From positions 1 to 43,265 of the forward strand of contig JAYVCD010000014.1 of assembly GCA_043750125.1 (NCBI GenBank): a stretch of 43,265 nt of DNA, written 5' to 3'. Positions within the stretch are counted from its first letter, which is position 1. Each line of letters opens with the position of its first letter. This document shows, in pieces, positions 1-34,866 of this stretch. Made by a program: the position numbers and the translations under genes. The stretch is from Archangiaceae bacterium. GTDB taxonomy: Bacteria; Myxococcota; Myxococcia; Myxococcales; Myxococcaceae. The notes beneath the pieces were generated by a model. That model ran no database searches. It was not told where the DNA came from and was given only the letters and a program-made list of their open reading frames with translations.

Positions 1-305
1 TTGTCGCCCAGGTCCTCGACGTGGCGAAGAATGGTGCTGAAGTCAGCGCGCTTCATCGGGTCGGGCGCAAAGCTCCCAATCCACACTTTGCCTTTGAGCT
101 GCTCGGCGCCGAAGGTGCCGCCGTCGGCCAACTGCAGTTGCCACGCTCCCAGCGAAGGGCCGGGCGGAGGAGCCTTGAGAAAGCGCCGCTGCATGAACGG
201 CAGGACGGTGAGAAAAAACGCGCCGACCACGAACGCAATCACGAACGGATTTCGCCACAGCGGCATCTTCGCCGCGGGCACCCCTTCGGGCGTGGGCTCG
301 TTCAC
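1..305 (-). CDS. SCO/thioredoxin-fold-like membrane-anchored protein, 3' end outside the window; CxxxC motif not seen
   Basis: Manual translation from GTG 305 (GTGA overlap with the upstream stop): MNEPTPEG...WRNPFVIAFVVGAFFLTVLPFMQRR...GGTFGAEQLKGKVWIGSF. N-terminal TM helix plus the 'LKGKVW' segment typical of SCO proteins, downstream in a cox operon. Not in the ORF track. Confidence 0.55.
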   Translation of the reverse strand, partial: MNEPTPEGVPAAKMPLWRNPFVIAFVVGAFFLTVLPFMQRRFLKAPPPGPSLGAWQLQLADGGTFGAEQLKGKVWIGSFAPDPMKRADFSTILRHVEDLGD

Positions 306-526
306 TTCGCCGAAGGCAGGGTCAAGGGCACGCGCTGACGCTCGGCCCGGCGCACCCGAACGACGATGAAGCCGACAATGCTGCCCATCGTCGCCAGGGG
401 CAGCAGCGACATCACGATCGTCATCGCCTGGTAGGTGCCCTTGGTATCGGTCGCGGCCCCACAGACGGGGCACGCCAACGCGGCAGCAGAAATGAACAGT
501 ACGGCCAGGAACGCCAGAGCACGCAT
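302..526 (-). CDS. Small oxidase-operon protein (74 aa): signal peptide, CxxC, one TM helix
   Basis: C-terminal part of ORF 302..889 from ATG 526: MRALAFLAVLFISAAALACPVCG...TM. The start overlaps the upstream stop (TGATG) and the stop overlaps the next start. Confidence 0.75.
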   Translation of the reverse strand: MRALAFLAVLFISAAALACPVCGAATDTKGTYQAMTIVMSLLPLATMGSIVGFIVVRVRRAERQRVPLTLPSAK

Positions 527-1119
527 CAGAAGTACACCCGCGCGTAGATGACCGGCCACATGCCGACCACGAAGTACCAGAACGCCTGAGTCGTATAGAA
601 GACGTTCGGCGACAGCGTCCCTTTGCGCAGCTTGATCAGCGCGTAGGTCAGCAGTCCGATCGCCACCAGCGCGTGCGCGGCATGGGTGCCGATGATCAAA
701 TAGAAGAACGAGCCCAGGGTGCTCGAGGTCATCGTCAACCCCTGGCTCAGCAAGCTCAGCCATTCCATTCCCTGCAGCACCACGAAGGTCAGCCCGAGCG
801 CCAGGCACAGGGTCAGCGCCAGAATTCCGCCCCGGCTCTTGCTCTTCTGGTAACCCCGGTGGGCGAAGAACAAAGCGATTCCACTGCAAACCAGCGCGGC
901 GGTATTCAGCGCGGTCGCCGAGGCGGGCAGCATCGGCTGGCCCGGAGGCGGCCAGGACATCGGAATGTTCGAGGCCCGCACGATGGTGAAGGCGCTCAGC
1001 ATTCCGGCGAAAAACATGATCTCGGCGGTGATGAAGATCAGCATCCCCATCACCCCGTTGGGCAGCAGCTGCTCGCGCCGAAGGTACCGCGGGGGCTCTG
1101 AGGGAATTGTTCCGTCCAT
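526..1119 (-). CDS. Heme-copper oxidase subunit III family protein (second copy)
   Basis: GMLIFITAEIMFF, LNTAALVCSG, FFYLIIGTHAAH and FWYFVVGMW match the 5-TM COX3/CyoC pattern. Confidence 0.9.
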   Translation of the reverse strand: MDGTIPSEPPRYLRREQLLPNGVMGMLIFITAEIMFFAGMLSAFTIVRASNIPMSWPPPGQPMLPASATALNTAALVCSGIALFFAHRGYQKSKSRGGILALTLCLALGLTFVVLQGMEWLSLLSQGLTMTSSTLGSFFYLIIGTHAAHALVAIGLLTYALIKLRKGTLSPNVFYTTQAFWYFVVGMWPVIYARVYF

Positions 1120-1129
1120 CGCGTCTTCC

Positions 1130-1609
1130 TTACGGGTGCATCCCGGCGTTGTGCTCGTCGGTGCCGTGCTCTTCGCCCACGGCCGCTGGGTGCTCGGCGT
1201 GGTGCGCGCCGGGATGCAGCAGCATTCCGCGCTTGATCGATTCTTTGGCCGCGGTGTTTTCCCAGCGTGCGCCCTCGTGCTTCATCACGTCGGGAGACAT
1301 CGCGGCGACCATCAAACACATCAGCGCCAGCATCGTTCCCAACATGTAGGGGACGATCTTCTTCTCGTGGTTCAGGTGCATGAACCGGGTCGCCACCAGG
1401 TACGCCTTGACGAACGCGATTCCGAAAGCGGTGGCCATCGTCAGCGCCCGGATTTCCAGCATCGGGCCCAGCACGCTGATCAACAGCAACCCACAGAGGA
1501 TCGCCCAGATCTTCACGTAGTTGGTGTGGTGATGCGCAGCCGGCGGCGCGCCCGGCCCGGCCGGGTGTGGCAACGGCGGAGGATGTGCCGCAGCGTGTTC
1601 AGCAGCCAT
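1130..1609 (-). CDS. ctaF: Cytochrome c oxidase subunit IV family protein
   Basis: YVKIWAILCGLL...IAFVKAYLVATRFMHL (KA.LV...FMHL motif of prokaryotic subunit IV); His-rich termini. Confidence 0.85.
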   Translation of the reverse strand: MAAEHAAAHPPPLPHPAGPGAPPAAHHHTNYVKIWAILCGLLLISVLGPMLEIRALTMATAFGIAFVKAYLVATRFMHLNHEKKIVPYMLGTMLALMCLMVAAMSPDVMKHEGARWENTAAKESIKRGMLLHPGAHHAEHPAAVGEEHGTDEHNAGMHP

Positions 1610-1618
1610 GGGGCTCCT

Positions 1619-2194
1619 TCACTTCGCGATGTAGAGCAACGGGAACAGGAAAATCCAGACCAGGTCGACGAAGTGCCAGTAGATGCCGATGTTCTCGACC
1701 CGCTGCAGCTCTTTGTTCTTCTTCGCATCGGCGGCGACGAACAGCATGATGATCATCCCGGCGATGACGTGCAGCCCGTGCAGCCCCGCGGCGGTGTAAT
1801 AGAACGACCAGAAGGTATTCGAGGTGATCGTCATCCCGTGCTTGATTTCGGTCGTCCACTCGATCGATTTGACGACCAGAAAAATCAGCCCGCCCAGACA
1901 GGTCAGGTAGAGGAAGTTCGCCGCCTTCTTCCCCTCGCCCTTCTCTGCCGCCTGGTGCCCCATCACAGCCATCAGGCTGGAAGTCAGCAGTACCAGGGTG
2001 TTGAAGGCCCCAGCCCAGGTGTTGGTGTTGGTCGCCTGGTTCGCCCAGTCGGGGTGCCCGAGCCGGTGCATCACGTAGCCCCCGAGCAGGCCTCCGAAGA
2101 TCACGATTTCAGAGGCGATGATCCACCAGACGGCAAGCCTGCCCGTGGGAACTCCGGTCGCGCTGCGCGTCGTTGCGATGGGTCGGGTGCTCAT
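1619..2194 (-). CDS. ctaE: Cytochrome c oxidase subunit III
   Basis: WWIIASEIVIFGG, NTLVLLTSS, YYTAAGLHGLHV, YWHFVDLVWIFLFPLLY. Likely ATG at 2194, right after the subunit I stop. Confidence 0.93.
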   Translation of the reverse strand: MSTRPIATTRSATGVPTGRLAVWWIIASEIVIFGGLLGGYVMHRLGHPDWANQATNTNTWAGAFNTLVLLTSSLMAVMGHQAAEKGEGKKAANFLYLTCLGGLIFLVVKSIEWTTEIKHGMTITSNTFWSFYYTAAGLHGLHVIAGMIIMLFVAADAKKNKELQRVENIGIYWHFVDLVWIFLFPLLYIAK

Positions 2195-2196
2195 AA

Positions 2197-3903
2197 TCAG
2201 CTCGGAAGGTGCTGCGGCCAATGGTCGTCTTCACGGTCCGGAACGCTGTACTCGTACGGCCCGCGGTAGACGGTGGGCAGCACCGGGAAGTTGCCGTGCG
2301 GGGGAGGCGAGGCCGCGTGCCACTCGAGGGTGTTCGCGCGCCACGGGTTGGGGCCGACCTTCGGGCCCCTGAACATCGAGTAGAAGTAATTGACCAGGAA
2401 GACCACCTGGAACGCGAGCATCAGCACCAGCGAGAGCGTGGCCAGGATGCGCAGGTCCTGCATTCCGGACTTCATCAGGTCGGGGAAGTGGGTGTAGTCG
2501 AAGATTCGGCGGTGGTCGCCGCGCGCGCCGGTGATGAACAGCGGAATGAAGATGAAGTTGAAGCTCACCACCGTGCCCCAGAAGTGGACCTTGCCCCAGG
2601 TCTCGTTCATCGAACGGCCGAACATCTTCGGGAACCAGTACGTGACTCCGGCGAACACCGCGATGATCGCGATCGGGACGAACGTGTAGTGGAAGTGGGC
2701 GAGCACGAAGTACGTGTCGTGGAAGTAGATGTCGGCTGCAGACGCGCCGAGGAAGATGCCGGTCACGCCGCCGATCAAGAACTCAGAGATGAACGCCAGC
2801 GCCCACAGCATCGGGACCGCAAGGCGAATCGAGCCGCCGTAGAGCGTCGCGATGTAGACGAACATCATCTCGGCCACCGGAATCGAAATCAGCAGCGTGG
2901 TGACGCCGAAGATGTTCGCCATGCGGGGGTCGATGCCGGCGATGAACTGGTGGTGGGCCCAGACGAAGAAGCTGAGCACTCCGGTGCCGAGCGCGGTGTA
3001 GAGCACCGTCTTGTACGCGAAGAGCTTCTTGCGCGAGAAGACGGTGATGATTTCCGCGACGATTCCGACCGCGGGCAGCATCACCACGTAGACCTCGGGG
3101 TGCCCGAAGAACCAGAACAGGTGCTGCCACAAAATCGGGTCTCCGCCGCGAACCGGGTCGTAGAACCCGGTGCCGATGGTCTGATCGAACAACAGCATCA
3201 CCGCCCCGGCGACCAGTGGGCCCACCGACGCCATGAAGAGGATGCTGGCGATGACGATCATCCAGACCACGATCGGCACGTCGAACATCTTCATTCCCGG
3301 CGCCCGCGAATTCATCATCGTGGTGACGAAGTTGATTCCGCCCAGCAGGAAGGCGACGAATTCCACCGCCACCGCCAGCAACCACAGCGGCGCCCCGTGC
3401 GGAGTCAGGTTGTAGTCGGCGCGCGCGGACAGCGGAGGATACGAAGTCCAGGCTCCCCCAAAGGCGCCACCTTCGACGAAGAACGAGAAGATCAGGATCA
3501 ACGCGCTGAGCAGGAACAGCTGGTACGACAACCGATTGATCCGCGGGAACACCATGTCGTCGCAGCCGATCATCAGCGGAATGAGGTAGTTGCCGAACGC
3601 GGCGATCAACACCGGCATCGCGACCCAGAAGATCATCACCGACCCGTGGGTGGTCACCAACGAGTTGTAGTCGTGGGCGCTGACCCGACCCCAGCCGGGA
3701 ACGCTGAGCCCGGGGAACGCCTGCTGCATCCGAAAGACGTAGACGGTGAAGCCGCCGATCAACGCCATCGCCATTCCGGTGAACAGGTACTGGAAGCCGA
3801 TGATCTTGTGGTCGGTGCTGAAGAGATACTTCTTGAAGAAGCTCTCTTCGACGTGGTGCGCGACTTCGTGCGCGCCCTGCGTCTCGGTGGTAGGTGCTGT
3901 CAT
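2197..3903 (-). CDS. ctaD: Heme-copper oxidase subunit I, A1-type motif
   Basis: TDHKIIG, heme-ligand His (TTHG), DMVFPRIN, WTSYPPL, GHPEVY, WAHH, HDT, AHFHY and an RR pair. ATG 3903 overlaps the subunit II stop. Confidence 0.97.
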   Translation of the reverse strand: MTAPTTETQGAHEVAHHVEESFFKKYLFSTDHKIIGFQYLFTGMAMALIGGFTVYVFRMQQAFPGLSVPGWGRVSAHDYNSLVTTHGSVMIFWVAMPVLIAAFGNYLIPLMIGCDDMVFPRINRLSYQLFLLSALILIFSFFVEGGAFGGAWTSYPPLSARADYNLTPHGAPLWLLAVAVEFVAFLLGGINFVTTMMNSRAPGMKMFDVPIVVWMIVIASILFMASVGPLVAGAVMLLFDQTIGTGFYDPVRGGDPILWQHLFWFFGHPEVYVVMLPAVGIVAEIITVFSRKKLFAYKTVLYTALGTGVLSFFVWAHHQFIAGIDPRMANIFGVTTLLISIPVAEMMFVYIATLYGGSIRLAVPMLWALAFISEFLIGGVTGIFLGASAADIYFHDTYFVLAHFHYTFVPIAIIAVFAGVTYWFPKMFGRSMNETWGKVHFWGTVVSFNFIFIPLFITGARGDHRRIFDYTHFPDLMKSGMQDLRILATLSLVLMLAFQVVFLVNYFYSMFRGPKVGPNPWRANTLEWHAASPPPHGNFPVLPTVYRGPYEYSVPDREDDHWPQHLPS

Positions 3904-4595
3904 GGAGTGACTCCGCTGGGCGCGACGGCGAGCGGCGCGTGGGTCTTGACCCACTCAGCGTGCACGTCAGGGTTCGTGATGATGATGCGGGCGCCCATGA
4001 TCGCGTGGCCGATGCCACAGATCTCAGCGCACTGAATGTCGAAGCCGCCGGTGAGGATCGGTTTGAACCAGCCCTTGATGGTGCGCCCGGGCACGGCGTC
4101 CTGCTTGAGGCGGAACACCGGCACCGAGAAGTCGTGCAAGGTGTCGCGGGACTGCAGCTCGAACTCGTAGGTCTTGTTCACTTCGACGTGAAGCTCGTCG
4201 ACGGTGCGAATGTCGTCGGCGGTGTCGAGCTTCCCGTCGGGCCCGGCGTGCACGAAGGTCCACGCCCACTGCTGCGCGATGATCCGCACAGTCTCGTCCA
4301 CATGCGGCGTGGTCTGCTTGACGTCCACCCACACCCGGATCGCCGCGAAGATGATCAAGATGTCGAAGACCAGCACCGCGTAGTGCGGAATCGAGACCCA
4401 CCGCTTCTCTTTCCAGTCTTCGCCGGCGACGTACTGCGCCTTCACGCCTTCCTTCTCGCTGAACACCAGCACGAACCCGAAGAGCAGGGCCTGCGCGATG
4501 AGGAAGAAGAAGCCGGTGATCACCATGACCAGAAGGATCAGGTTGTCGATGTCCGCTGCGTAACTCGATGCCTGCTCGACGTAGTGCTGGATCAC
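3900..4595 (-). CDS. ctaC: Cytochrome c oxidase subunit II (CuA)
   Basis: Two TM helices, AQQWAW, DTLH and the CuA motif CAEICGIGHAIM. Confidence 0.96.
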   Translation of the reverse strand: MIQHYVEQASSYAADIDNLILLVMVITGFFFLIAQALLFGFVLVFSEKEGVKAQYVAGEDWKEKRWVSIPHYAVLVFDILIIFAAIRVWVDVKQTTPHVDETVRIIAQQWAWTFVHAGPDGKLDTADDIRTVDELHVEVNKTYEFELQSRDTLHDFSVPVFRLKQDAVPGRTIKGWFKPILTGGFDIQCAEICGIGHAIMGARIIITNPDVHAEWVKTHAPLAVAPSGVTP

Positions 4596-4610: not shown

Positions 4611-4718
4611 CTACCAGACCAGGATGCCGACGGCCGCGATGAACGCGACCGCTCCGGCGACGGTCAGAGAAAAAATTGTCCAGGAAAGGCTTTCAGGGGT
4701 GATGGATTTTTTGGACAT
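4611..4718 (-). CDS. 35-aa single-TM peptide inside the oxidase operon
   Basis: ATG 4718 to TAG 4611: MSKKSITPESLSWTIFSLTVAGAVAFIAAVGILVW. It fills the gap between the cytochrome c gene and subunit II. Below the ORF-track size cutoff. Confidence 0.7.
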   Translation of the reverse strand: MSKKSITPESLSWTIFSLTVAGAVAFIAAVGILVW

Positions 4719-4721
4719 GGC

Positions 4722-5390
4722 TTAGTGGCCCGAGAGGGTGCCGATGTGGGAAATCACGTTCTTCATCGCCTGCTCGTCGACGAGCGTGGCGGCCATCGGG
4801 CGCATCTGCGAGCCGGTAATGTCGCCGGGAGCAGCGCCGCGAACGCCGCTCTTGAACTTCTTCAGCGAGCTCAACAGGTACCAATCGGCCTGGCCGGCAA
4901 TCGGAGGCGCCTTCAGCTGCTCGTTCCCCATTCCGGTCGGGCCATGGCAGGCGGCGCAGACCGCGTAGGAGCCTTGACCGAGGCTTGCGTTTCCACCGGT
5001 GAGCGTGGGCGCCGAGCGGACCGCGGGCATCGCGGCGACATACGCCGACACGGTCTTGACCTCGAAATCACTGGCCATCTGCCGGGACATCGGGCGCATT
5101 CGCAGCCCTTCCGCGTCATCGGGGTGAGCGCCGCGAAGTCCGGTTCGGAACTTTCGCACCGTCGATTCGACGTACCACAGGGGCAGCCCGGCGATGGCCG
5201 GCGCGGCGACGTACGCCTGCCCTTCCCCGTGGTTTCCGTGGCAGGCCTTGCAGGACTCGTAGAGGTCGTGGCCGCCCTGCGGGGTGTGCGCCGCCGCAGA
5301 GGGACAGCCGGTCAACAGCGCGCCGCCGGCCAGCAGAACGACCGGGGCCAGCACTGCGCGCCAGGATGAGAATCGAGATGTGACGTTCAT
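4722..5390 (-). CDS. Diheme cytochrome c (c4-like), probable lipoprotein
   Basis: Two CxxCH motifs (CKACH, CAACH), each followed by P.IAG and a MRPM axial-Met segment; lipobox-like LLTGC. Confidence 0.92.
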   Translation of the reverse strand: MNVTSRFSSWRAVLAPVVLLAGGALLTGCPSAAAHTPQGGHDLYESCKACHGNHGEGQAYVAAPAIAGLPLWYVESTVRKFRTGLRGAHPDDAEGLRMRPMSRQMASDFEVKTVSAYVAAMPAVRSAPTLTGGNASLGQGSYAVCAACHGPTGMGNEQLKAPPIAGQADWYLLSSLKKFKSGVRGAAPGDITGSQMRPMAATLVDEQAMKNVISHIGTLSGH

Positions 5391-7209: not shown

Positions 7210-7291
7210 GCTTTGATTGTCGCCTGTGTCCCGGAGGTTGTTGCAAGTAACCTCCCGAAGCTCAGAGGCGTATTTGTGTCCTTTGGAGGGA

Positions 7292-8386
7292 TTGCATCTG
7301 GAGCTCACTCTTCAACAGCTCAACCGCGCCACGCTCGCCCGCCAGTTTCTGCTCGCGCGTGAGAAGACGACGGCGTTGAAGGCGATCGAACGGTTGGTTG
7401 CGATGCAGGCGCAGATCCCCCGGCCCCCGTTCATCGGGTTGTGGTCGCGGCTCGTCGGCTTTGAACGACGCCAGCTCGCCCAGCTGCTCGAGCGGCGCGA
7501 AGTGGTGCGCGCAACCACCCTGCGCGGAACCCTTCACCTCTGGAGCGCGAAGGACTTCCTCGCCTTCCGGGCGATCTTTTCTTCGATGCTCGAGAAGAGC
7601 ATCACCCTGGTGCTGCGAGATCGCGCGAAGGGCCTCGACGTCCAGCGGGTGTGCGATCAGGCCCGCAGCTTTCTCGAAGCAGGCCCACGCACCTTCAATC
7701 AGATTCGGGCCCACCTGGTCGTCCTCAACTCCAAAGTCGACGACCGGGCGATGGGGCTGGCGGTGCGCTGCGCTCTGCAGTTGGTGCAGGTGCCGATCGA
7801 TGCGCCCTGGAGCTTTCCCGCCGACGCTCAATTTTCTCTGGCTGCGTCCTGGCTCGGCAAGCCCACCGCGAAAGATCCAGATCCTCGCCCCCTGGTGCTG
7901 CGGTACCTCGCCGCGTTCGGACCCGCGAGCGTCGCCGACATGCAGAGCTGGTCCGGACTCAAGGGCCTCGAGGACGCTTTTGAAGGGTTGCGGCCGAAGT
8001 TGAAGATGTTCTGCGACCCGCGCGGGCGTGAGCTGTTTGATCTTCCCAAAGCCGCGCGCCCCGACGCCGAGACTCCCGCGCCAGTCCGTTTTCTGCCTGA
8101 CTTCGACAACCTCGTGCTCGGCCACGCCGACCGAAGTCGGATCATTGCCGATGCGCACCGCCCGTTGATTGCCACGAAGAACCTGCTCGTCCCGCCCACG
8201 TTTCTCATCGACGGCTTCGTCGCCGGCACCTGGAGAATCGATCGCGCCCGGACTTCTGCGACCTTGACCCTCAAGCCGTTCGAGCCGCCCGCGAAGGCGA
8301 CGCGCGCAGAGCTTTTGATCGAAGCGGCCGCGCTGCTGAAGTTCGTCGAGCCCGAGGCTGCCAGGCAGCTCGTTGCTTTCGGGTAG
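7292..8386 (+). CDS. AlkZ-like (HTH_42 winged-helix) DNA glycosylase family protein
   Basis: LNRATLARQ, catalytic-type QxQ motif (MQAQ, 7403-7414), RATTLRGTLH, YLAAFGPAS, FLPDFDNLVLGH, LIDGFVAGTW. GGAGG at 7285; exact start uncertain. Confidence 0.88.
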   Translation: MHLELTLQQLNRATLARQFLLAREKTTALKAIERLVAMQAQIPRPPFIGLWSRLVGFERRQLAQLLERREVVRATTLRGTLHLWSAKDFLAFRAIFSSMLEKSITLVLRDRAKGLDVQRVCDQARSFLEAGPRTFNQIRAHLVVLNSKVDDRAMGLAVRCALQLVQVPIDAPWSFPADAQFSLAASWLGKPTAKDPDPRPLVLRYLAAFGPASVADMQSWSGLKGLEDAFEGLRPKLKMFCDPRGRELFDLPKAARPDAETPAPVRFLPDFDNLVLGHADRSRIIADAHRPLIATKNLLVPPTFLIDGFVAGTWRIDRARTSATLTLKPFEPPAKATRAELLIEAAALLKFVEPEAARQLVAFG

Positions 8387-8527: not shown

Positions 8528-11500
8528 TCAGACGCTGAGCAACACTCCACGCGCGGGCTGCCCGGTCGCCTTCGCGATCGCCCGAACGTAGACGGACACC
8601 TGGGCTTCGTACTCAGGCAGGCGCCCGGCGAGCTCTACGTCGGTCTTGAAATCGATGACCACCCACCCGTCTTCCCCGAGGAAGGCGAGGTCGATGATCC
8701 CTTCGGCCAGCGTTCCATCGTCCAGCCGCAGCGACACCGGGCTCTCGCGGCGCACCCCGCCACTCTTAGCCGCGGCCTGAAGAAGCGGGTGGCGCAGCGC
8801 GGACGCGACCGCCTCGTTTGCCGAGCGCACTTCATCGTCGGCGCAACCGAGCAAGCGCGCCTTGAGCTTCACCACGTTGGCAATCTGGCCGACCGTCGCG
8901 TCCAGAGGCACCTCGGCCAGCGCGCCGTGCACCAGCGCCCCGAAGCGCCGGCCGCTGGGTCGGCTTCCCCGGTCGAGGTCGCTGGCCTGGTGCTCGAGGG
9001 TCGCAGCCGGCTGCCCTTCGACTTCGCGCGCGGTGATCACCCGCATCGAAGGAACCGAGCCGCACTCGAGGTTCTTCGCCCTTCCCTGGTGCCATGCCTG
9101 GAAGCTCGCGACCCCCGCCGCGGCGTTGGTCCCCTCGGCGTCTTCGCGCAGCACTTCGTCCTGCTGCAGCCCGGTGGTGGGCGCCTTGTCCAGCTCGAGC
9201 ACGGCAGGATCCCACCACACCACTTCGTGTCCGCCCGCTTCGGCGGTGTGGAGCCCGGGCATCACCGACACCCCAAACGCCGCGCGCTCAGGGCGGTCGA
9301 TCACGCTCTGAGGTCCAAACCTGGGACACCCGGCAGCGACTCGTGCCGAGCGCGAATCTTCCGGCCGGGGATAAAGGACGGGGTGAAGGACGTCGACCCA
9401 CCCTTCCTGCCGGGCGTCGCCCACCACAGGAACCACCAGCAGATCTCGCGCGCGCGTCGCGGCGACGTAGACGAGGCGAATCGATTCTTCGCGCTCGCGC
9501 CGCAGCACTTCGGCCGACTGTTCGTTGAGCTCGACCGGGCTGCAGCCCGCCAGCGGCTCGGCCCACAGCTTCAACTCGGGGTCGACCCAGTGCGACGGGT
9601 TTCGGCGGCCCGAGTGCGGAGCGGTCGGGTCGGCGAGGATCACCACCGGAAATTCGAGCCCCTTGGCCCCATGAACGGTCATCACCCGGACGCCTTCACT
9701 GCCTTCTTCGACGATCGGCGCTTCGGCGGCGGTGGCCCCTTCGGCGCCGGCGTGAAGCCGGTCGATGAAGGCGCGAAATGAGCGACCGCCGGAAGCCTCG
9801 AACCGCCGTGACAAATCGGTCAACTGAGCCAGGTTGGCCAGCGCCTGGTCTCCCGCGGTCCAGAACGCGACCCCGGCATGGGCTCGGGTGGCCTCGAGCA
9901 ACTGGGCGATGGTGTCGGCGATCGGGCGCTTGTTGCGACCGTTGTGCAGCGCCTTGAGCACCGCGAGCCCTTCGGACACCTCGAGCGCGGCGGTCGGAAA
10001 CGCTTCGGTCTGCAACGGCCGCAACGGGTGCAGCTTTCCCGCAGCGGCGCGGAAGGTGAGCAGCGCATCGTCCGACAGCGCAAACAGGGGCCCCCGCAGC
10101 GTCGCGTAGACCGACAGCTCGTCGTCGGGCCATTCGACGGCGGTGAGCGCGTTGCGCAGCGCGAGCACTTCTTCGCGGGCATGAAACGAGCGTCCTCCGA
10201 CGAGCACGTGCGAAATGCGGCGGGCCTCGAGCGCGCGGGTGTAGCGCAAGGTCACGTCGGCGCCTTCCCAGCCCTTGAAGCGCTTGAACAAGATGCAGAT
10301 GTGTTGCGGCGCAATCGGCACCGGTTGGGGCGAGCCCGCTTCCATCACCGTCCACCCGCTCTTGCGAACGAGGAAGTCGATGAACGCACCGACGGCATCG
10401 GGGTAGGACTCTTCGATGCTCTGGTTGGTAATTTTCCCGTAGTGCGCGTAGGGCTGGGGCACGGGCAACGCAATCAGCGAAGGCTGGTGCGCGATGGGCG
10501 CGCGGTACTGGGTCAGCGGGACGTAGCGCGCCTGGGTCGCAGTGCCCTCGCCCATCTGGGCCGAGAAGGCGGCGTTGACGGCCTGCTGCACCGCGGGCGC
10601 GGCGCGGAAGCTGGTCGTCAAATCCAGCAGTACCGCCCCCGCGGAAAGGAGGCCGACTTTGATCCGCTGGTACAGCGCCACGTCGGCCCGACGAAATCGG
10701 TAAATCGACTGCTTCGGGTCGCCGACGATGAACAGCTTTCCCGCCACCGGCACCGCGTGCTCGGGGTCGCTGACCGAAGGGTCCGACGCCGCGAGCAGCC
10801 GCAAGATGTCGGCCTGCAGAGGATCGGTGTCCTGGAACTCGTCGACGAACAGGTGGGTGAAGCGCGCCTGCAGCTCGACCCGCACTTCGCGATTCTGCTG
10901 AAGCAGGTTTCGAAGGCGAAACATCAGGTCGAAGAAATCGAGCTTGCCCGAACGGGCCTTCACGTCTTCGTACGCGCCGACCAGGGGCAGCAGCTCGGCA
11001 TGAAGGCAGGCGGCGAGATCTGCATTGGCGCGGGTCAGCAACGCGTCGAGCTGAGCCTTGGTCGCGTCGCGCCGGGTGAGGACGTCGGCGCGAGACAGAC
11101 CGCGCGCGTAGTCGGCGCCCCAGCCCTTGTGCATCCAGCTGCGGTGGCGGGCCAGCTCGCCCAGCGCCGCCTCGAGCCCGTCGTAGTCGCGCTCGGCGAC
11201 GGCTTCGCGGTGATCGAGATCCATCACGAAGCGATGAACTTCGGCCAGGTTGCCTCGCAGGTAGTCGTCGGCGGCGCCCAGGGCGGCGAGCTCCCCGAGC
11301 TCACGCAGCGAAGGAATGAGCAGCTCGAGTTCCATGTCGCGATCGAACGGGTCTCGCCGCCAGGCCCCGGTGAAGTCGCGGTGGTCGACCAGCCGCAGCG
11401 CCGCGTTGCGCAGCAGCTGGCGCGGGCTCAGCTGGTCGCGCCGTCGGGATCTGCGCCGCAACAGCCGACGTACTCCTTCCGAGGGAGCCCGAAGGGTTTG

Positions 11501-11947
11501 AGGAAACCAACCCTCGAAGGCGGCGTCGAGCAGCGCGCCAGAGTCTTCGTCGGCGGCGATCTCGAACAGGGGATCAATGCCGGCCTCGACCGGATGCTCG
11601 CGCAGCAAATCGGCACAGACTTCGTGAATGGTCGCGATCCGTGCGACTTCGAGCTCAGCGAGGGCGCCTTCCAGCCGCGCGTGCTCGGCCGAGCCCACGC
11701 TCGCGGCCAGCCGCGCATCTTCGAGGGCCTGCCGCAGCCGCAGCTTCATTTCGCCGGCCGCCTTCTGGGTGAAAGTGACCGCGATGATCGTCCCCAGCGT
11801 TGCTCCGTGGTGACCCTGCGCGACGACGGCCACGATTCGACCGACGAGCGCGGTGGTCTTCCCAGTGCCGGCGGCGGCCTCGACCACCAGCGTGGCGTCG
11901 AGATCCTCTGCGATGCGCCGGCGCGCTTCGTGGTCGGCGAGGATCAT
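8528..11947 (-). CDS. addA: AddA-like UvrD helicase/nuclease
   Basis: Walker A AAAGTGKT, TFTQKAA, VDEFQD, VGDPKQSIYRFRRAD, MTVHGAKGLEF, YVAATRARD and a C-terminal RecB-type nuclease (GIIDL...IDFKTD...Q..Y). Confidence 0.93.
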   Translation of the reverse strand: MILADHEARRRIAEDLDATLVVEAAAGTGKTTALVGRIVAVVAQGHHGATLGTIIAVTFTQKAAGEMKLRLRQALEDARLAASVGSAEHARLEGALAELEVARIATIHEVCADLLREHPVEAGIDPLFEIAADEDSGALLDAAFEGWFPQTLRAPSEGVRRLLRRRSRRRDQLSPRQLLRNAALRLVDHRDFTGAWRRDPFDRDMELELLIPSLRELGELAALGAADDYLRGNLAEVHRFVMDLDHREAVAERDYDGLEAALGELARHRSWMHKGWGADYARGLSRADVLTRRDATKAQLDALLTRANADLAACLHAELLPLVGAYEDVKARSGKLDFFDLMFRLRNLLQQNREVRVELQARFTHLFVDEFQDTDPLQADILRLLAASDPSVSDPEHAVPVAGKLFIVGDPKQSIYRFRRADVALYQRIKVGLLSAGAVLLDLTTSFRAAPAVQQAVNAAFSAQMGEGTATQARYVPLTQYRAPIAHQPSLIALPVPQPYAHYGKITNQSIEESYPDAVGAFIDFLVRKSGWTVMEAGSPQPVPIAPQHICILFKRFKGWEGADVTLRYTRALEARRISHVLVGGRSFHAREEVLALRNALTAVEWPDDELSVYATLRGPLFALSDDALLTFRAAAGKLHPLRPLQTEAFPTAALEVSEGLAVLKALHNGRNKRPIADTIAQLLEATRAHAGVAFWTAGDQALANLAQLTDLSRRFEASGGRSFRAFIDRLHAGAEGATAAEAPIVEEGSEGVRVMTVHGAKGLEFPVVILADPTAPHSGRRNPSHWVDPELKLWAEPLAGCSPVELNEQSAEVLRREREESIRLVYVAATRARDLLVVPVVGDARQEGWVDVLHPVLYPRPEDSRSARVAAGCPRFGPQSVIDRPERAAFGVSVMPGLHTAEAGGHEVVWWDPAVLELDKAPTTGLQQDEVLREDAEGTNAAAGVASFQAWHQGRAKNLECGSVPSMRVITAREVEGQPAATLEHQASDLDRGSRPSGRRFGALVHGALAEVPLDATVGQIANVVKLKARLLGCADDEVRSANEAVASALRHPLLQAAAKSGGVRRESPVSLRLDDGTLAEGIIDLAFLGEDGWVVIDFKTDVELAGRLPEYEAQVSVYVRAIAKATGQPARGVLLSV

Positions 11948-14900
11948 TTCATTCCCCTCAGCTGATCGAGTGCTTCGAGCTCGACGCGCGATTTGTTTCG
12001 CACCCGGCGTTCTTCGTAAGCGCCGCAAATCGACTTGTAGTCACACCAGGTGCATTCGTCTTTGGCCGGAGCTGCGGGCAGAAATCCGTTTTGCAGCGCG
12101 GTGCCGACGACTTCGATCGCGCGGCGGGCCGAAGAGCGGGTGACCGGGTCGAGCGGAATGAAGACCTCGCTGAAACCGCCGGCCTGGGTGCAGTAGTACA
12201 GCCGGCCCCCCTCGACTTTGACGTCGGGGAAGATTTTCTCGAGCGCGAGGGCGTAGAGGGCGGGCTGAAGGGTCTTGCCTCCGCCGAGCACCATTCCGGC
12301 TTCGGCGCGGGCTTTGCCGGTTTTGTAATCGGTGGCGCGCAGTGCTCCGGACGGGCTGCGCTCGACCAGGTCGATCGAGCCCCGCAGGGTGACTCCGACT
12401 TCGAGCTTCGCGGGCTCGGCCTGACTCTGGGGATCCTGCTGGTCTCGATTCGCGAGCCCGAACGCCAGCTCGTATTTCCACGGTTTCCACTGCGCAGCCG
12501 TGTTCACGGTTCGCCGCAGCCACTCGCGCACGTCGGCGCTGATCGCCACCAGCGCGTCGTCCCAGACGCGATCGATGGCGGGGGCAAAGTTGTCCTTGTG
12601 GTGATCGGCGACCTTTCTCAAGACCGAATCGATCTCGGTGAGCGCTTCGTCGAGGTGCGCCGCGTCCAGCGGGACGCCCTTCTCGCGCAGCGCGGTCAAC
12701 ACTCCATACTGGACCTCGTGGACGATCGACCCCCGCTGCAGTGGGTCGAGATCTTCGATTTCCACCGGCTCTTCGCGCGGCGACAGCCTGACGATCGCGC
12801 TGAGAAAGAATCGATACGGACAGGCGGCGAAGTGTTGCAACGCGGTGGCCGAGAACGAGCGGGCCGACAACTGATGGGGGCCCAGGGCCGCCAGGGCTTC
12901 GGCCGAGGGTTTGACCAGCCCGTCGGCAGAGGTCCACGCCCGCTGCCACCGCTGGTAACGCATGCGAAGAGCGCGGGCCAGGAAGCGGTTTCCAGAAGTG
13001 AGGTAGCGGGCCGCACCGCGCGGGGCAGGCGTGGGGGACCTGAAGAGCCCATCGAGCACCGACAAATCTCGCTCGGCAATGTCGATCGCCGAGGCGGGGT
13101 CCCTCGGAGCTGGCCACCCGATTCGCGCTTCGACCGCGCGCTCGGCCCGACGGCGCAGCTCTTCGTAGCGGGGCAGCGTCCCTTCGGCGGCGCGCAGTGC
13201 CTCGAGGCCGTAGAAGGAAGGCACGCGCGGCCGGCCTTCGTGAACGTCGAGGCGGGGGTACGAGAGAATGACGCGCGAGGTGGCGGCCCCTACGGCCAGC
13301 TGCAGCTGGAGGCGTTCGGCGGCGACCCGGTCGGGGTCGGTCTGCAGCGCAGGGCCGAGCCGGCGACGTTCGGGGTCGGGAGCGATCGGGTCCTCGCGAA
13401 CTTTCTGGGGGAAAATTCTTTCGGCGAGGCCGGGGACGAAGACCGCCTCGAAGCGCATCCCGCGCGCGGCGTCGATCGGGCCGACGAAGACCCGTCCGAA
13501 GCGGCGGGCCGGCGAAGGCTGGGTGAGCTCGAGCAGCCGCTGCGAGAGCACCAGGCGCACTTCGCGAAGGCCGACCGGGCCGACGACTCCCAGCGGAGCG
13601 AGCTCGGCCAACAGCGACAGCACCCGCTGGGGATGACGAAGCGACCGGGTGGAAAGCTCGGTCAATCGGTCGAGCCATTCGTTCCAGGCGGCGGACTTCG
13701 GCAGCGCGGCCAGCAGGTCGAGCAACGGAAGCGCGTACTCGCGAAAGGCCTTCAAGTCGGCGAGCGCTTTGGTGAGCCGCAGCGCGTTGGCTTCGCTCAC
13801 GTCGGGCGCAGCGAGCTCGAGCTTGAACTTTTCTTTGAGCCCATTGAGCCGGCGTTCCCAGCGGGCGCGGCCTCCAATCACCGCGGCATCGACGAGCAGC
13901 TGTTCCCACCGCCGCGGGGCCCGCAGGGTACCGGCGACGACGGGCGCATCGGGCGCGGGCTCTTCGTCTGCGATTTCGGGCTCGAGGGGTTCGGGCGCGC
14001 GCGCCTGCTCGGCGAGGTCGGAATCGACGGGCTCCCAGCGCACGGGCGGCGCAGGAGGAGGCGTGCCGTCGGCCTGGGCGGGCGGCACTTCACCCAACGA
14101 GAGGTACTCGGCAAAGCGACTGGCCGACAAGCCGTCTTCTGCGCACGCGAGCAACGACAGCAAGGCGCGCCCTGCGGGGTCGGGCGCCCGGATTCCATGC
14201 GCGCAGTAGGCGGGCACTCCGGCGCGGCGCAGGGCCTCGTACATCGGGGCGCGGTAGGGGCCGGGGGCGCGCAGCAGTACGGCGATCTGATCAAACGGTA
14301 CGCCCCCTGCCGCCACCTGCTGGATTTTTCGCGCGACCTCGACGCACTCGCGCAGCTCGCCCGGAGCCGAGAGCATCGTTACGTCTTCGCCCGGTGCTCC
14401 GGTCGGCAGTTGCCCGGCGCGAAAGAGGTTCTGTTGAAGGCGGGTCAGCGCGGTGGTGCTGGGAAGATGGGCGGTGGTCGCTTTGATCCCCAGGGCCTTC
14501 TCGAGCAGAGCCACCGAGCGTTCGTCGCCCGCCGGGACGGTCGCGAGCCACTGGGTGGAATGAGACGCAAGCGCGGACACCAGCTCGCGCTCGAGCTCAG
14601 AGGCAAGCGCCACGTCGAGCAGCAAGGTGGGCAATCGGCACAGCGGGTGGGCACCGCGCGAAATTTCAGACACGGCCAGGCGCAGAACGATCGCGCCATC
14701 GGCCAGGCCGGCCTCGAGCAGCGCCGCATCGAAGGCGGTGGCAGCGACGCAGAGATCGGCATCGAGCGCGTCATTCGAAATGCCGCCCTGCCGCGTCTCT
14801 TCGACCGTGCGGGCGAGCGCGCGGGGCAAGCCGGGCTGTCCGGCGACCGGGGCAAAGCGGCCAAGCTTTCCCTTCTGGTTCAGCTGGTAGACGACGCGGA

Positions 14901-15228
14901 TCCAGAGGGCTTCGAGGGACAGGGGCGTGGCGGGAGTGAGGCCCGCTTCGAGCAGCCCACGCTCAGCGAGGCTGAGGCACAGGCGCCGCAGCGACAGCCG
15001 GTTCCAACCGAACGTCGCTCCGCCTTTGCGGGTGAAGGTGCGAACGAGATCCGAGGCCCCCTCGACGCTGCCTCCGACGAGCAGCAGCTCAGAAAAAGCC
15101 GCACGATGAGAAAGCCACTGTTCGGCCTGCTCGACTCGAAGCGCAGCGGACGACGAGATGAAGATGCTGCGAGACACAACAGGGCCTTTATCCCATGTGA
15201 CCCTGACGGAAGCGGTCGGCGGCGGCAT
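11944..15228 (-). CDS. addB: AddB-like PD-(D/E)XK nuclease with Fe-S cysteines
   Basis: SATALQHFAACPY, RGSIDLVE...DYKTG...Q..Y and CTWCDYKSIC; overlaps the addA start. True start may be GTG 15177. Confidence 0.9.
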   Translation of the reverse strand: MPPPTASVRVTWDKGPVVSRSIFISSSAALRVEQAEQWLSHRAAFSELLLVGGSVEGASDLVRTFTRKGGATFGWNRLSLRRLCLSLAERGLLEAGLTPATPLSLEALWIRVVYQLNQKGKLGRFAPVAGQPGLPRALARTVEETRQGGISNDALDADLCVAATAFDAALLEAGLADGAIVLRLAVSEISRGAHPLCRLPTLLLDVALASELERELVSALASHSTQWLATVPAGDERSVALLEKALGIKATTAHLPSTTALTRLQQNLFRAGQLPTGAPGEDVTMLSAPGELRECVEVARKIQQVAAGGVPFDQIAVLLRAPGPYRAPMYEALRRAGVPAYCAHGIRAPDPAGRALLSLLACAEDGLSASRFAEYLSLGEVPPAQADGTPPPAPPVRWEPVDSDLAEQARAPEPLEPEIADEEPAPDAPVVAGTLRAPRRWEQLLVDAAVIGGRARWERRLNGLKEKFKLELAAPDVSEANALRLTKALADLKAFREYALPLLDLLAALPKSAAWNEWLDRLTELSTRSLRHPQRVLSLLAELAPLGVVGPVGLREVRLVLSQRLLELTQPSPARRFGRVFVGPIDAARGMRFEAVFVPGLAERIFPQKVREDPIAPDPERRRLGPALQTDPDRVAAERLQLQLAVGAATSRVILSYPRLDVHEGRPRVPSFYGLEALRAAEGTLPRYEELRRRAERAVEARIGWPAPRDPASAIDIAERDLSVLDGLFRSPTPAPRGAARYLTSGNRFLARALRMRYQRWQRAWTSADGLVKPSAEALAALGPHQLSARSFSATALQHFAACPYRFFLSAIVRLSPREEPVEIEDLDPLQRGSIVHEVQYGVLTALREKGVPLDAAHLDEALTEIDSVLRKVADHHKDNFAPAIDRVWDDALVAISADVREWLRRTVNTAAQWKPWKYELAFGLANRDQQDPQSQAEPAKLEVGVTLRGSIDLVERSPSGALRATDYKTGKARAEAGMVLGGGKTLQPALYALALEKIFPDVKVEGGRLYYCTQAGGFSEVFIPLDPVTRSSARRAIEVVGTALQNGFLPAAPAKDECTWCDYKSICGAYEERRVRNKSRVELEALDQLRGMK

Positions 15229-24241: not shown

Positions 24242-24468
24242 TCCTGTCCTTTCATGAAATTCCCGTCCTGGTCTTGCCGTGTGAGAGCCTGACACCGGGG
24301 TGTTTGCTGTGAAAAAATAGCTCACTGTTTGATCCCCTGCGCAAGCAACTGGGCACTTGCGCCAGGGCAAGCGTTACCTCAACGGAACGCAGCCGATGTT
24401 CGACGTTCTTTCGTTGTGGGTGCGAACGGTGAGGACGCCCGTTGTTCCTTGAGACAAGGTCCGTGTTC

Positions 24469-24792
24469 ATGACGACCGACGCGGGCTTCGCAGTCTCTCC
24501 AGAAACGATTCGACTCGGGGACCTCGAGGTGTGCCGCCTCGGTTTCGGCGCGATGCAGCTGCCGGGCAAGGACGTCTGGGGAGAGCCCGAAGATCCGGCC
24601 CGCGCGCGCGAAGTGCTCAAGCGCGTGGTCTCGCTCGGAATGAACTTCATCGATTCGTCCTGGTACTACGGCCCTCACGTTTCGAACCGGCTGATCGCTG
24701 AAACCCTTTATCCGTACCCGAAGGACCTCGTGATCGCCTCGAAGCTCGGAGGCAAGCGAACCCCCGACAAGGGCTGGGCGGTCCATTCATGA
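24469..24792 (+). pseudogene. Aldo/keto reductase, N-terminal third only
   Basis: RLGFGAMQL, GMNFIDSSWYYG, LVIASKLG; stops after about 107 aa. Confidence 0.8.
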
Positions 24793-28588: not shown

Positions 28589-28693
28589 CATGCAGCGCGT
28601 CGACAACAGCGGGGTTGGCAATTGCCCGCTGCAGGGCCGGATTTCTCAGAATTGTCGCAGCGACAGTTCGATTTCAACACGACAGGTTTCGAC

Positions 28694-29722
28694 ATGACGG
28701 CTGTTCAACCCAGAACTGCCCGAACCTCCGGGTCTTTCCCTCGCACGAGGATTCCAGACGAGGCGCTGATCAAGAAAGTCCGGGCGCTGGGCAAAATTTT
28801 TCGACCGACGCCGATCGTGGCGACGTCCATTCCAGGTCTGAAGCTGTTTGCGAAGCTCGAGTGCCAGAATCCCTTTGGGAGCATCAAGGATCGCGCGGCC
28901 TACGGAATGCTCAGCGCGGCGGTCGACCGGGGAGACGTTCGTCAGGGGACGACGCTGATCGAGTCGTCTTCCGGCAACTTCGCCGCAGCACTCGCCGGGC
29001 TCTGTCACATGTTGGAGCTGAACTTCATTCCGGTGATCGACCCGAACATCAATACCTCGCGGGAATCGTTCCTGCGGGGCATCTGCCCCGCCGTGGTCAA
29101 AGTGGTCGAGCGGGACGACACCGGCGGATTTCTAAAAACGCGCCTCGCGAAGGTCAAAGAGCTCTGCGCGAAGGACCGCGAGACCTACTGGCCCAACCAG
29201 TACGGGAACCTCGATGGGGTGAACGCGCATTACCGGCTCACGGCTGGCGAAATCTGCGACCAGTTCTCGGCCCTCGACGTGGTCTTCATCGGGGTCAGCA
29301 CCGGAGGCACCATCTCGGGAGTCTCACGCCGACTCAAAGAACACTTTCCCAAAATCAAAGTCGTGGCAGTGGACGCCGTCGGCTCGATCATCTTTGGCGG
29401 CGCTCCCGGCAAACGCCACATTCCGGGCATCGGAGCGAGCATCAACCTGACGTTGATCGACCACTCGTTGATCGACGACGTGATCCACGTGCCCGAGCAC
29501 GAGACGGTGCAGGCCTGTTACGAGCTGCGCGATGAGCACGGCCTGTTTCTGGGCGGCTCTTCGGGCAGCGTCTTCGCAGCCGCCAAACAGTACGCGGCGA
29601 AGCTGCGCGATTCGCAGAAAGAGCCGACCGCGTTGCTGCTGTGCGCGGACGGCGGGGCCGCCTACCTCGAGACCGTCTACAACCCGGTCTGGGCCAGCCG
29701 GTTGGGCAGCTCGAAGGCTTGA
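28694..29722 (+). CDS. sbnA: SbnA-like PLP enzyme (2,3-diaminopropionate biosynthesis)
   Basis: KLECQNPFGSIKDR, ESSSGNF, DDTGGFLKTRL, WPNQYGN, STGGT, YLETVYN; adjacent to an SbnB homologue. Confidence 0.9.
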   Translation: MTAVQPRTARTSGSFPRTRIPDEALIKKVRALGKIFRPTPIVATSIPGLKLFAKLECQNPFGSIKDRAAYGMLSAAVDRGDVRQGTTLIESSSGNFAAALAGLCHMLELNFIPVIDPNINTSRESFLRGICPAVVKVVERDDTGGFLKTRLAKVKELCAKDRETYWPNQYGNLDGVNAHYRLTAGEICDQFSALDVVFIGVSTGGTISGVSRRLKEHFPKIKVVAVDAVGSIIFGGAPGKRHIPGIGASINLTLIDHSLIDDVIHVPEHETVQACYELRDEHGLFLGGSSGSVFAAAKQYAAKLRDSQKEPTALLLCADGGAAYLETVYNPVWASRLGSSKA

Positions 29723-29729
29723 GCCTTCT

Positions 29730-30743
29730 TCAGCGCGACAACTCGTAGAAGAAATCTCCGAGCCGAAGACCTTTTCCCGCGGCCCGCGCCTCGTCGTAGA
29801 CCCACTTTCCGACCGCGAGGTCCAACACCCCCAGGCCGAAGGGCGAGAACACCGTCGCGCGCGAAGGGTCGAGCGTGCACTTGCCTTCCATCAGCTCGCT
29901 CAGCGTGCCGTTGACGAAGCGCCGGTGGCCGACCTTCTGCTCGGCCAGGTGCACCGAGGTGCTGGCCTTCATCACGTGCTCTACGTCATCGACCACGTTG
30001 TTCGAATTCAAGATCAGCTCGGGCGACAGGTCTCGCAACGACAGGTGCAGCACCAGCGGGCGGTGGGCGAGCAGCTGTGGATCCTCGAGGTGCGCAGTCG
30101 CGGCGATGGTCGCCAGGCCCACCACGTCGCTCGCGGCAAACAGCTCGGCGGCCGACTTCGAGACGAGGATCTTCTGGTGGCGCGTAGGGGAACACACCGT
30201 CGCGGCGAACCGGGCGGACTCGGCGGGGTTCAAGTCGAACAGCCGGACCTCGTCGAACTGCCACCCCGAGTTGATGAAGAAATTGTACAGATAACGCGAA
30301 ATCAAACCATTCCCGACCAAACCCAGACACTTTGCTTTGCGGCTTCCTTTGTTGAGCCATTCTGCCGCGAGCACCGCCGACGCCGCGGTTCGCGCCGCCG
30401 AGATGATGGAAGCCTCGAGGATCGCGAAGGGGTAGCCGGTCTCGCAGTCGTTGAGGATCAGCACCGCCGACGCCCGGGGGAAGCCCTTCTTGACGTTGTC
30501 CGGGTAGCTGGCGATCCACTTCAGGCCCGACACATCGAAGCCTCCGCCGAGGTAGGCCGGCAGGGCGATGATTCGGGCGTTCGTCTTCTTCGGGAAGTTG
30601 AGAAAGTAGCTGGGAGGATTCACCGAATCGCGGGCCCCATGCGCGAGGTAGGCGCGCCGAACGACATCGACGCAGGTCGTCAGCTTCGCGTTGATGATGT
30701 CCGCGACGACCTGCCCTTTGATGATTTCAATTTCGAAGTTCAT
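29730..30743 (-). CDS. sbnB: SbnB-like ornithine cyclodeaminase family dehydrogenase (2,3-diaminopropionate biosynthesis)
   Basis: VNPPSYFL, RIIALPA, KWIASYPDN, ISAARTAASA, LHLSLRD, FSPFGLGVLDLAVG. Confidence 0.93.
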   Translation of the reverse strand: MNFEIEIIKGQVVADIINAKLTTCVDVVRRAYLAHGARDSVNPPSYFLNFPKKTNARIIALPAYLGGGFDVSGLKWIASYPDNVKKGFPRASAVLILNDCETGYPFAILEASIISAARTAASAVLAAEWLNKGSRKAKCLGLVGNGLISRYLYNFFINSGWQFDEVRLFDLNPAESARFAATVCSPTRHQKILVSKSAAELFAASDVVGLATIAATAHLEDPQLLAHRPLVLHLSLRDLSPELILNSNNVVDDVEHVMKASTSVHLAEQKVGHRRFVNGTLSELMEGKCTLDPSRATVFSPFGLGVLDLAVGKWVYDEARAAGKGLRLGDFFYELSR

Positions 30744-30797
30744 GCCGTCCCCTCTACAACAAAGGCCGGCTTGAATCGTCTGCCCCCTGCCGTAGCG

Positions 30798-31874: not shown

Positions 31875-32000
31875 CCGTGCCTCCAGGCAGGTGTGGCCCC
31901 AAAACTGGCGATCTGGCCATAGCCCAACCCGCGCAGCCCAACTAGAGCCCACGTTGCTGCTTTCTTGGATTCCCCGGCAAGGTTAAAGCGAACCCGACGA

Positions 32001-33773: not shown

Positions 33774-33777
33774 AGGG

Positions 33778-34770: not shown

Positions 34771-34866
34771 GTGACGGGCCTGCAATGGTCGAGCGCCGCG
34801 GGTGATCGACAGGGCGCTGCGCGTGATAGGTTGCCGCCCCCTAAACCCTCAGTGACGGTTGATCTC

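Follow-up and report, generated by a model that had tools for sequence, protein, structure and literature searches.

A multi-phylum clade of A-family cytochrome oxidases that has lost the canonical K pathway, seen in an Archangiaceae bacterium

The A1-type aa3 oxidases are recognised by the motif XGHPEVY in subunit I (an excerpt of PMC8361435) and by defined sets of channel residues. In P. denitrificans numbering, the D-channel of this type consists of Asp124, Asn199, Asn113, Asn131, Tyr35, Ser134, Ser193 and Glu278, and the K-channel of Lys354, Thr351, Ser291 and Tyr280 (both sets from an excerpt of PMC3084760; part of PMC9687966 also defines the channels). It has long been asked why A-family oxidases need a separate K pathway and whether all protons could instead arrive through the D pathway, and the work has relied almost wholly on dead mutants such as K362M. 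Lys-less members of the A family were tabulated by Degli Esposti et al. 2021 (portions of PMC8239418, Tables S1 and the Fig. S7 table), with entries from Acidithiobacillus/Thioclava, CyoCAB, Elusimicrobia, Methylacidiphilum, Bacteriovorax and bacterium HR19. Lys loss also features in an excerpt of bioRxiv 10.1101/2020.03.01.968255, and part of bioRxiv 10.64898/2026.01.22.701106 reports it and calls its physiological meaning unclear. The excerpts of three further sources deal with cbb3 only (PMC11841059, on M. xanthus NmpR), contain nothing on K-channel loss (PMC6431628) or leave the A family undivided (PMC11214002). Lys loss in the A family is already known and recurrent, and the clade described here is only moderately surprising because of this; a literature search from whose reach most subscription journals lay outside returned no description of its residue signature.

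We analysed a window of 43,265 nucleotides, the whole of the stretch of DNA under study, from an uncultured Archangiaceae bacterium. Positions 2197..3903 of the minus strand encode subunit I (coxA), a COX1 protein of 568 amino acids counted from the ATG at 3903, which alignment, homologues, AlphaFold2 and Foldseek identify as an A1-type HPEVY oxidase without K362, T359, S299 or S365. Its phmmer alignment to R. sphaeroides subunit I (1m56) is free of gaps from about residue 237 to 471, spanning helices VI-XI, at an offset of +16. The K-channel residues S299, T359, K362 and S365 correspond to A283 (codon 3055-3057), V343 (2875-2877), M346 (2866-2868) and V349, while I361 corresponds to Glu345 (2869-2871) and A356 to Ser340 (2884-2886). 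Ser340, Val343, Glu345, Met346 and Val349 all belong to helix VIII (2857..2886), and all of these codons are on the minus strand. Hydrophobic residues now occupy the old K-channel. An earlier note, made from the letters of this DNA, had proposed the gap-free register with R. sphaeroides aa3, the three non-polar replacements at S299, T359 and K362, the new Glu345 and an intact HPEVY Glu/Tyr, set of His ligands and Arg pair, and the alignment to 1m56 confirmed each of these. The same note had asked whether a Lys might sit at a shifted position; helix VIII contains no Lys at all, which rules this out.

Much of the enzyme is otherwise typical. Subunit I retains H86, H268, E270, Y272, H317/H318, H403/H405, R465/R466, D116, N105, N123 and N191, and its FGHPEVY motif includes the Glu expected of the A1 type. 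The AlphaFold2 model had a mean pLDDT of 92.4, and Foldseek aligned it with a TM of 0.87 to both 1m56 and 7ate, which are A1 oxidases; among the titles of the listed matches (titles, not each sequence), we noticed no naturally Lys-less enzyme. Subunit I scored 569.6 against TIGR02891, below the cut-off of 670.75. The defining K-channel set is reduced to its Tyr alone, and we therefore class the enzyme as a variant rather than a canonical A1 member.

Since Met346 is the exact inactivating change K362M, the gene could be a decaying or catalytically dead allele, which conservation renders hardly credible. None of the 120 best subunit I homologues (75-100% identity, query included) has the Lys: position 346 is Met in 117 and Leu in 3, position 343 is Val or Ile, and E345 and S340 are invariant. 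With 120 of 120 homologues lacking the Lys and carrying E345, the pattern is not attributable to chance or sequencing error. The six His ligands (H86, H268, H317, H318, H403 and H405) and Y272 are invariant in the same 120 sequences, as the A1 type requires. So is R58, which we take to be the equivalent of R52, the ligand of the haem a formyl group. Conservation among the homologues extends to W152 and the Mg-site residues. The metal ligands of subunit II were equally invariant in its own 120 homologues, the operon is conserved in several phyla, and dN/dS against members was 0.08-0.30 in 8 of 8 pairs (dS is probably underestimated; GC3 is 91%). Conservation in 120 of 120 homologues of both subunits together with the dN/dS values excludes an isolated or decaying allele.

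Records that hold members at 71-76% identity carry the titles Polyangiales, Bradymonadia, Myxococcota, Gemmatimonadales, Longimicrobiales, Bdellovibrionaceae, Eisenbacteria and Puniceicoccaceae. In a FastTree tree of 72 rows, the core clade (18 rows, support 100) was nested in a wider Lys-less clade (21 rows, support 100) that takes in Bacteroidota. Homologue, tree and paired-locus data support the earlier proposal of a distinct subfamily, and on sequence grounds they confirm a conserved, multi-phylum clade that has lost the canonical K pathway and is not in decay. A myxobacterial-type operon at 71% identity also occurs in a record titled Klebsiella pneumoniae MAG (L039), probably a mislabelled assembly.

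Subunit II (coxB; 3900..4595, minus strand; PF00116) has its CuA ligands intact. H154, C189, E191, C193, H197 and M200 are each present in 120 of 120 homologues, giving the CuA subunit II of the A1 type, and the same holds for His71 (codon 4383-4385, minus strand) and Asp78 (4362-4364, minus strand). These two residues are seven positions apart in TM2, which alignment shows to be longer, by a 4-residue insertion, than in Lys-bearing relatives. Searching the phylum with subunit II at E<=1e-45 gave matches in 62 of 356 genomes, the unpublished G204 included.

We tallied residues of both subunits at 80 paired loci, drawn from L033-L063, L113-L132 and L141-L186, leaving out loci without helix VIII or TM2 and frameshifted ones (e.g., L049 and L164). 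Acidic 181 (Glu or Asp), S340 and D78(II) were present in all 54 Lys-less loci. Among the 26 Lys-bearing loci, acidic 181, D78(II) and H71(II) were never found and S340 was found once. The full combination of Lys loss, E345, acidic 181, S340, D78(II) and H71(II) occurred in 44 of the 80 loci, and 8 more were Lys-less with acidic 181, S340 and D78(II) while having neither E345 nor H71(II). Two Lys-less loci (L042, from a record titled Puniceicoccaceae bacterium K14 with no MAG label, and L150) keep H71(II) and D78(II) with Ile at 345, which makes them natural controls for Glu345, and H71(II) accompanied E345 in 44 of 44 cases. On this distribution, D78(II), S340 and E181 arose first, and E345 came later, paired with H71(II). 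Because the 54 Lys-less loci constitute one clade, their co-occurrence amounts to essentially one evolutionary event rather than 54 tests.

More distant enzymes offered a view of Lys loss outside this clade. We retained 137 of 150 distant representatives having intact anchors; the 13 without anchor residues were dropped. The Lys is missing in 48 of the 137, corresponding to about 9 changes on the tree, though some of these representatives are fragments, fusions or frameshifted. Ser340 was found in 27 of the 48 Lys-less representatives versus 1 of the 89 bearing Lys. On phylogenetically independent pairs the association was not significant (about 3 same, 0 opposite and 2 uninformative; median p 0.25). 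Such pairs are too few for significance, so A356S is a candidate general suppressor of Lys loss and not an established one. The same order contains at least three further Lys-less clades of the A family (L022, L026, L032 and L003); the G360 position is Glu in L032, and in L003 Asp replaces the HPEVY Glu.

Modelling placed Glu345 and Ser340 away from the old channel. The complex of subunits I and II scored 0.89 versus 0.00 for the best control, with at least 96% of contacts agreeing between runs and a partner pLDDT of at least 87; of 157 solved complexes, 116 reach the mark applied, as do 2 of 215 mismatched pairs, and since subunits I and II are a textbook pair with similar complexes solved, the pass may reflect memory of structures and shows likeness only. 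The modelled interface comprises residues 337-338, 340-341, 344-345 and 347-349 of subunit I and 63-64, 66-67, 70-71, 74-75 and 78 of subunit II. According to this list, Glu345 and Ser340 are predicted to face subunit II rather than the old channel; positions 283, 343 and 346 are not named in it, and absence from the list is itself uncertain. Judging from antiparallel helix register and not from listed pairs, H71(II) would lie opposite E345, and D78(II) opposite 337-341 and about one turn beyond S340. The register also separates R327 from D78(II), considered as a salt bridge, by two to three turns in the model. Presumably S340 (A356) is near the haem a3 farnesyl hydroxyl and the Tyr, as in solved structures. 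The earlier suggestion that Glu345 stands in for the Lys within the channel found no support: Glu345 is modelled on the subunit II face, travels with His71(II) and is missing from 10 of the 54 Lys-less paired loci, which excludes it as a universal substitute.

Our leading reading, to which we give about an even chance, is a working aa3-type cytochrome c oxidase that serves as the usual A-family terminal oxidase of its host and receives protons via the interface of helix VIII and subunit II TM2. Electrons taken from quinol by alternative complex III would reach CuA via the di-haem cytochrome c of the operon and continue over haem a to the haem a3-CuB-Tyr site for the reduction of O2, a path for which ligands and gene order are observed and the flow itself is deduced. 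The protons of active-site reduction, normally delivered via the K-channel, would come along the interface. Asp78(II) would serve as the buried protonatable group, with the hydroxyl of Ser340 as the link toward Tyr272 and the farnesyl OH of haem a3. In the core clade, the conserved Glu345-His71(II) pair, modelled one to two turns nearer the cytoplasm, might also transfer protons, and Glu181 may retune the pumping path in the D-channel. The entrance to such a route is not obvious because the canonical entry Glu in subunit II, kept by 25 of 26 Lys-bearing and 19 of 20 family loci, occurs in only 6 of 34 other Lys-less loci.

The D-channel is largely preserved and partly rebuilt. Equivalents of D132, N121, N139, N207 and E286 are invariant among homologues, and 7 of the 8 defining residues are present. 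The eighth, Ser193, is Phe185 here, with the new Glu181 one turn away. The rebuilt upper segment (3349..3363, minus strand) has Glu181, Ala184 and Phe185 in place of S197, S200 and S201. The earlier note had described the D-channel as intact, which is correct for its Asp, Asn and Glu residues and incorrect for these three serines. E181 and F185 are invariant in all 120 homologues and were found in 47 of 47 core loci, while Ser at 201 was found in 77 of 81 Lys-bearing loci. An S197D mutant study reportedly exists; our literature search found no paper on S197 mutants.

These changes bear on a second reading, in which the enzyme reduces O2 with all protons arriving through the D-channel, Glu181 near its top supplying or storing extra ones, and Asp/His(II) and Glu345 being structural or electrostatic only. 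R. sphaeroides S201 is P. denitrificans Ser193, listed as a defining D-channel residue (PMC3084760), and the E181 change falls in the serine zone formed by S200 and S201, which the proton traverses (an excerpt of bioRxiv 10.1101/040717). The restriction of acidic 181 to Lys-less loci (54/54 versus 0/26 paired loci) and the invariance of the five D-channel equivalents agree with such a supply, as does a helix X that is rebuilt too (T407 and P410), changes at 423-425 being reported to propagate to the D pathway (an excerpt of PMC4550891). However, it leaves unexplained why a buried Asp(II) and a helix VIII Ser are fixed beside the lost channel, and an intact D-channel fails to rescue R. sphaeroides K362M (part of PMC7601700). 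We consider this second reading possible, if on balance doubtful.

Additional clade-specific residues are found on the periplasmic side and in helix X, namely Q319 (M335), R327, T407, P410 and H464 (P480), of which Q319 is invariant among the 120 best homologues. Q319, R327 and H464 near the periplasmic side, along with the variable subunit II entry Glu outside the family, could fit a slow or partly uncoupled O2 reductase having no replacement for the K path, in which some chemical protons are periplasmic or pumping is reduced. We regard such an enzyme as improbable given that E270, W152, R465/R466 and the Mg-site residues are conserved and that an inefficient enzyme is unlikely as the sole A-family oxidase of most of its host genomes (see below).

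The oxidase genes form an operon on the minus strand in the order cytochrome c, small ORF, coxB, coxA, coxC1, coxD, coxC2, small ORF and membrane-anchored gene. Its first gene (4722..5390; PF00034 in two stretches) encodes a di-haem c-type cytochrome with two CxxCH motifs, probably membrane-anchored and likely the electron donor to CuA. This gene was upstream of coxB in core-clade loci (L033-L045, L049 and L113-L132) and was not seen in the sister loci L046/L047. An ORF of 35 amino acids with a single helix follows (4611..4718; translation and tblastn), a probable small subunit with tblastn matches in L113, L114, L117 and L125 only. Beyond coxA lie a subunit III-like protein of the short 5-helix type (1619..2194; PF00510), a caa3-type subunit IV (1130..1609; TIGR02229 over cut-off, PF03626) and a second subunit III-like protein (526..1119; PF00510). 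Next is a 74-aa membrane ORF with a CPVC motif (302..526), conserved in the operon with tblastn matches in most member loci and without a Pfam or NCBIfam match. The contig end cuts the last gene, whose 5' part (1..305) encodes a membrane-anchored protein identified by tblastn with G008 orthologues; it has no Pfam match and is SCO-like by appearance only.

The operon is conserved across several phyla, and its surroundings link it to alternative complex III. In the genome of the window, the gene cut at position 1 continues on contig C421, followed by actA-actB, and actB-actF are on C267. The full actA-F cluster is downstream on the same strand in G008, G205, G137, G252 and G012, with ActD confirmed by PF11821 and ActC by PF03916. 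Within the fetched flank, actA was within about 6 kb downstream of the oxidase operon in 14 of 20 family loci. In other lineages, the 7 kb downstream contained no act genes at any of 13 loci (L033-L044 and L049), and in L045 they are upstream. In two genomes (G012 and G016), the Lys-less oxidase coexists with a Lys-bearing A2 enzyme, and a separate ActC gene lies near each of them.

Elsewhere, the window encodes an AlkZ-like glycosylase (7217-8386, plus strand), an AddAB-like helicase-nuclease pair (8528-15228, minus strand) and a possibly truncated aldo/keto reductase match limited to profile positions 1-76 of 291 (24442-24792, plus strand). A cluster at 28622-37193, possibly a pathway for a small amino-acid-derived metabolite, comprises a PLP-dependent enzyme, an ornithine cyclodeaminase-like protein, a cupin-8 protein, an ABC transporter, an alpha/beta hydrolase and a methyltransferase.

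We found the enzyme (at least 74% identity) in 48 of 267 genomes of the order, and 37 of the 48 had no other A-family match at E<=1e-40 (the unpublished G204 included). In this count the split gene of G003 was counted once and at most 5 candidates were scored per genome, such that G129, G131, G197 and G257 among the 37 each had one unscored candidate; G187 was missed, its subunit II having been found by the subunit II search. The only COX1 matches in G000, a genome 89% complete, are the Lys-less enzyme and a cbb3. In the one-contig, 99% complete G008, NrfD is matched once, cytochrome b not at all and COX1 twice, the second COX1 match being taken as cbb3 from its length and score. Genes for haem A synthase and haem O synthase were present in 5 of 5 carriers each, including G000 and G008; cbb3 and bd oxidases need neither. 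A bd oxidase was also present in all 5 carriers examined, and together with the cbb3-length COX1 match it implies that O2 respiration does not strictly depend on the Lys-less enzyme. In G000 the cbb3 cluster (G000:C120:1332-5901) has a fused ccoN-ccoO, ccoP, a ccoG-like gene and an adjoining P-type ATPase.

The earlier note had also raised NO or peroxide as the substrate, which would make the enzyme a cytochrome c peroxidase or NO reductase on an A1 fold. K362M does lose oxidase activity and keep peroxidase activity (part of PMC7601700). Moreover, nirK was over cut-off in 3 of 5 carriers (nirS in 0 of 5), including the 89% complete G000, which has no recognised NO reductase given that its COX1 matches are only the Lys-less enzyme and a cbb3. 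Yet the cross-link Tyr, the absence of which marks NO reductases (an excerpt of PMC3084760), is invariant and the three CuB His are kept. Two carriers, G008 and G252, had neither nirK nor nirS over cut-off. The operon also sits beside alternative complex III, as Lys-bearing A2 oxidases do in G015, G018 and G024. We therefore consider NO or peroxide unlikely as substrate and an enzyme of either kind very improbable. The enzyme very probably reduces O2. Being the sole A-family match in most carriers with alternative complex III downstream, it is most likely a housekeeping O2 reductase, with a proton route that appears to have shifted.

More tentatively, and with somewhat less than an even chance, the clade could represent a third natural A-family design that combines input of chemical protons over a carboxylate/His relay, largely from subunit II, with a two-glutamate D-channel. 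If so, A356S, the subunit II Asp and S197E would be natural suppressors of the lethal K362M that could be transplanted to a model enzyme. The clade carries a K362M-type substitution in the apparent housekeeping oxidase of many myxobacteria, accompanied by a short ranked list of co-occurring changes, so that a handful of point mutations in R. sphaeroides or P. denitrificans could address the question of the K pathway. If K362 is used to annotate A-family oxidases, a sizeable share of environmental enzymes will be misjudged.

Comparison with known systems delimits the clade. B- and C-family oxidases lack the D-channel and have an alternative Thr/Ser/Tyr K-channel, whereas the present enzyme has a D-channel and non-polar residues at 283, 343 and 346, and so does not belong with them. 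With the subunit I query, PDB ba3 chains scored about 40 bits versus about 400 for the A family, and the name 'cbb3-type subunit I' on database homologues is an automatic label. The NO reductases cNOR and qNOR have no cross-link Tyr and carry H-X-arom-X-E and HH-X-arom-arom-X17-E motifs (an excerpt of PMC3084760); in contrast, Y272 is invariant here, H268 is followed by PEVY and position 339 is Ile, placing the enzyme outside that group.

The tabulated Lys-less oxidases and the Ferrigenium straubiae COX are likewise A-family enzymes that retain the D-channel and have a non-ionisable residue for K354, so far as the excerpts of their sources show. In the two PMC8239418 tables, no row has the A/M/V/V pattern of the present clade, positions 197, 356 and 361 and the subunit II His/Asp are not scored, and myxobacteria are represented by a single row, an A2 enzyme with the Lys. 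The A2 oxidases linked to alternative complex III in other Myxococcaceae (subtype a-I +/- Act) share the actA-F genomic partnership. They differ in having YSHPAVY and the Lys, in being only about 33% identical to the present enzyme and in having act upstream of cox, rather than downstream as here. The A1-type aa3 oxidases (R. sphaeroides 1m56, P. denitrificans 1ar1/7ate and the K362M structure 3om3) share its fold (TM 0.87), HPEVY, six His ligands, cross-link Tyr, D132/N121/N139/N207/E286, Arg pair and CuA site. Unlike them, the present enzyme has non-polar residues at K362, T359, S299 and S365, Glu at S197, Phe at S201, Ser at A356 and Glu at I361, a subunit II TM2 that is one turn longer with His and Asp, and two short subunit III genes.
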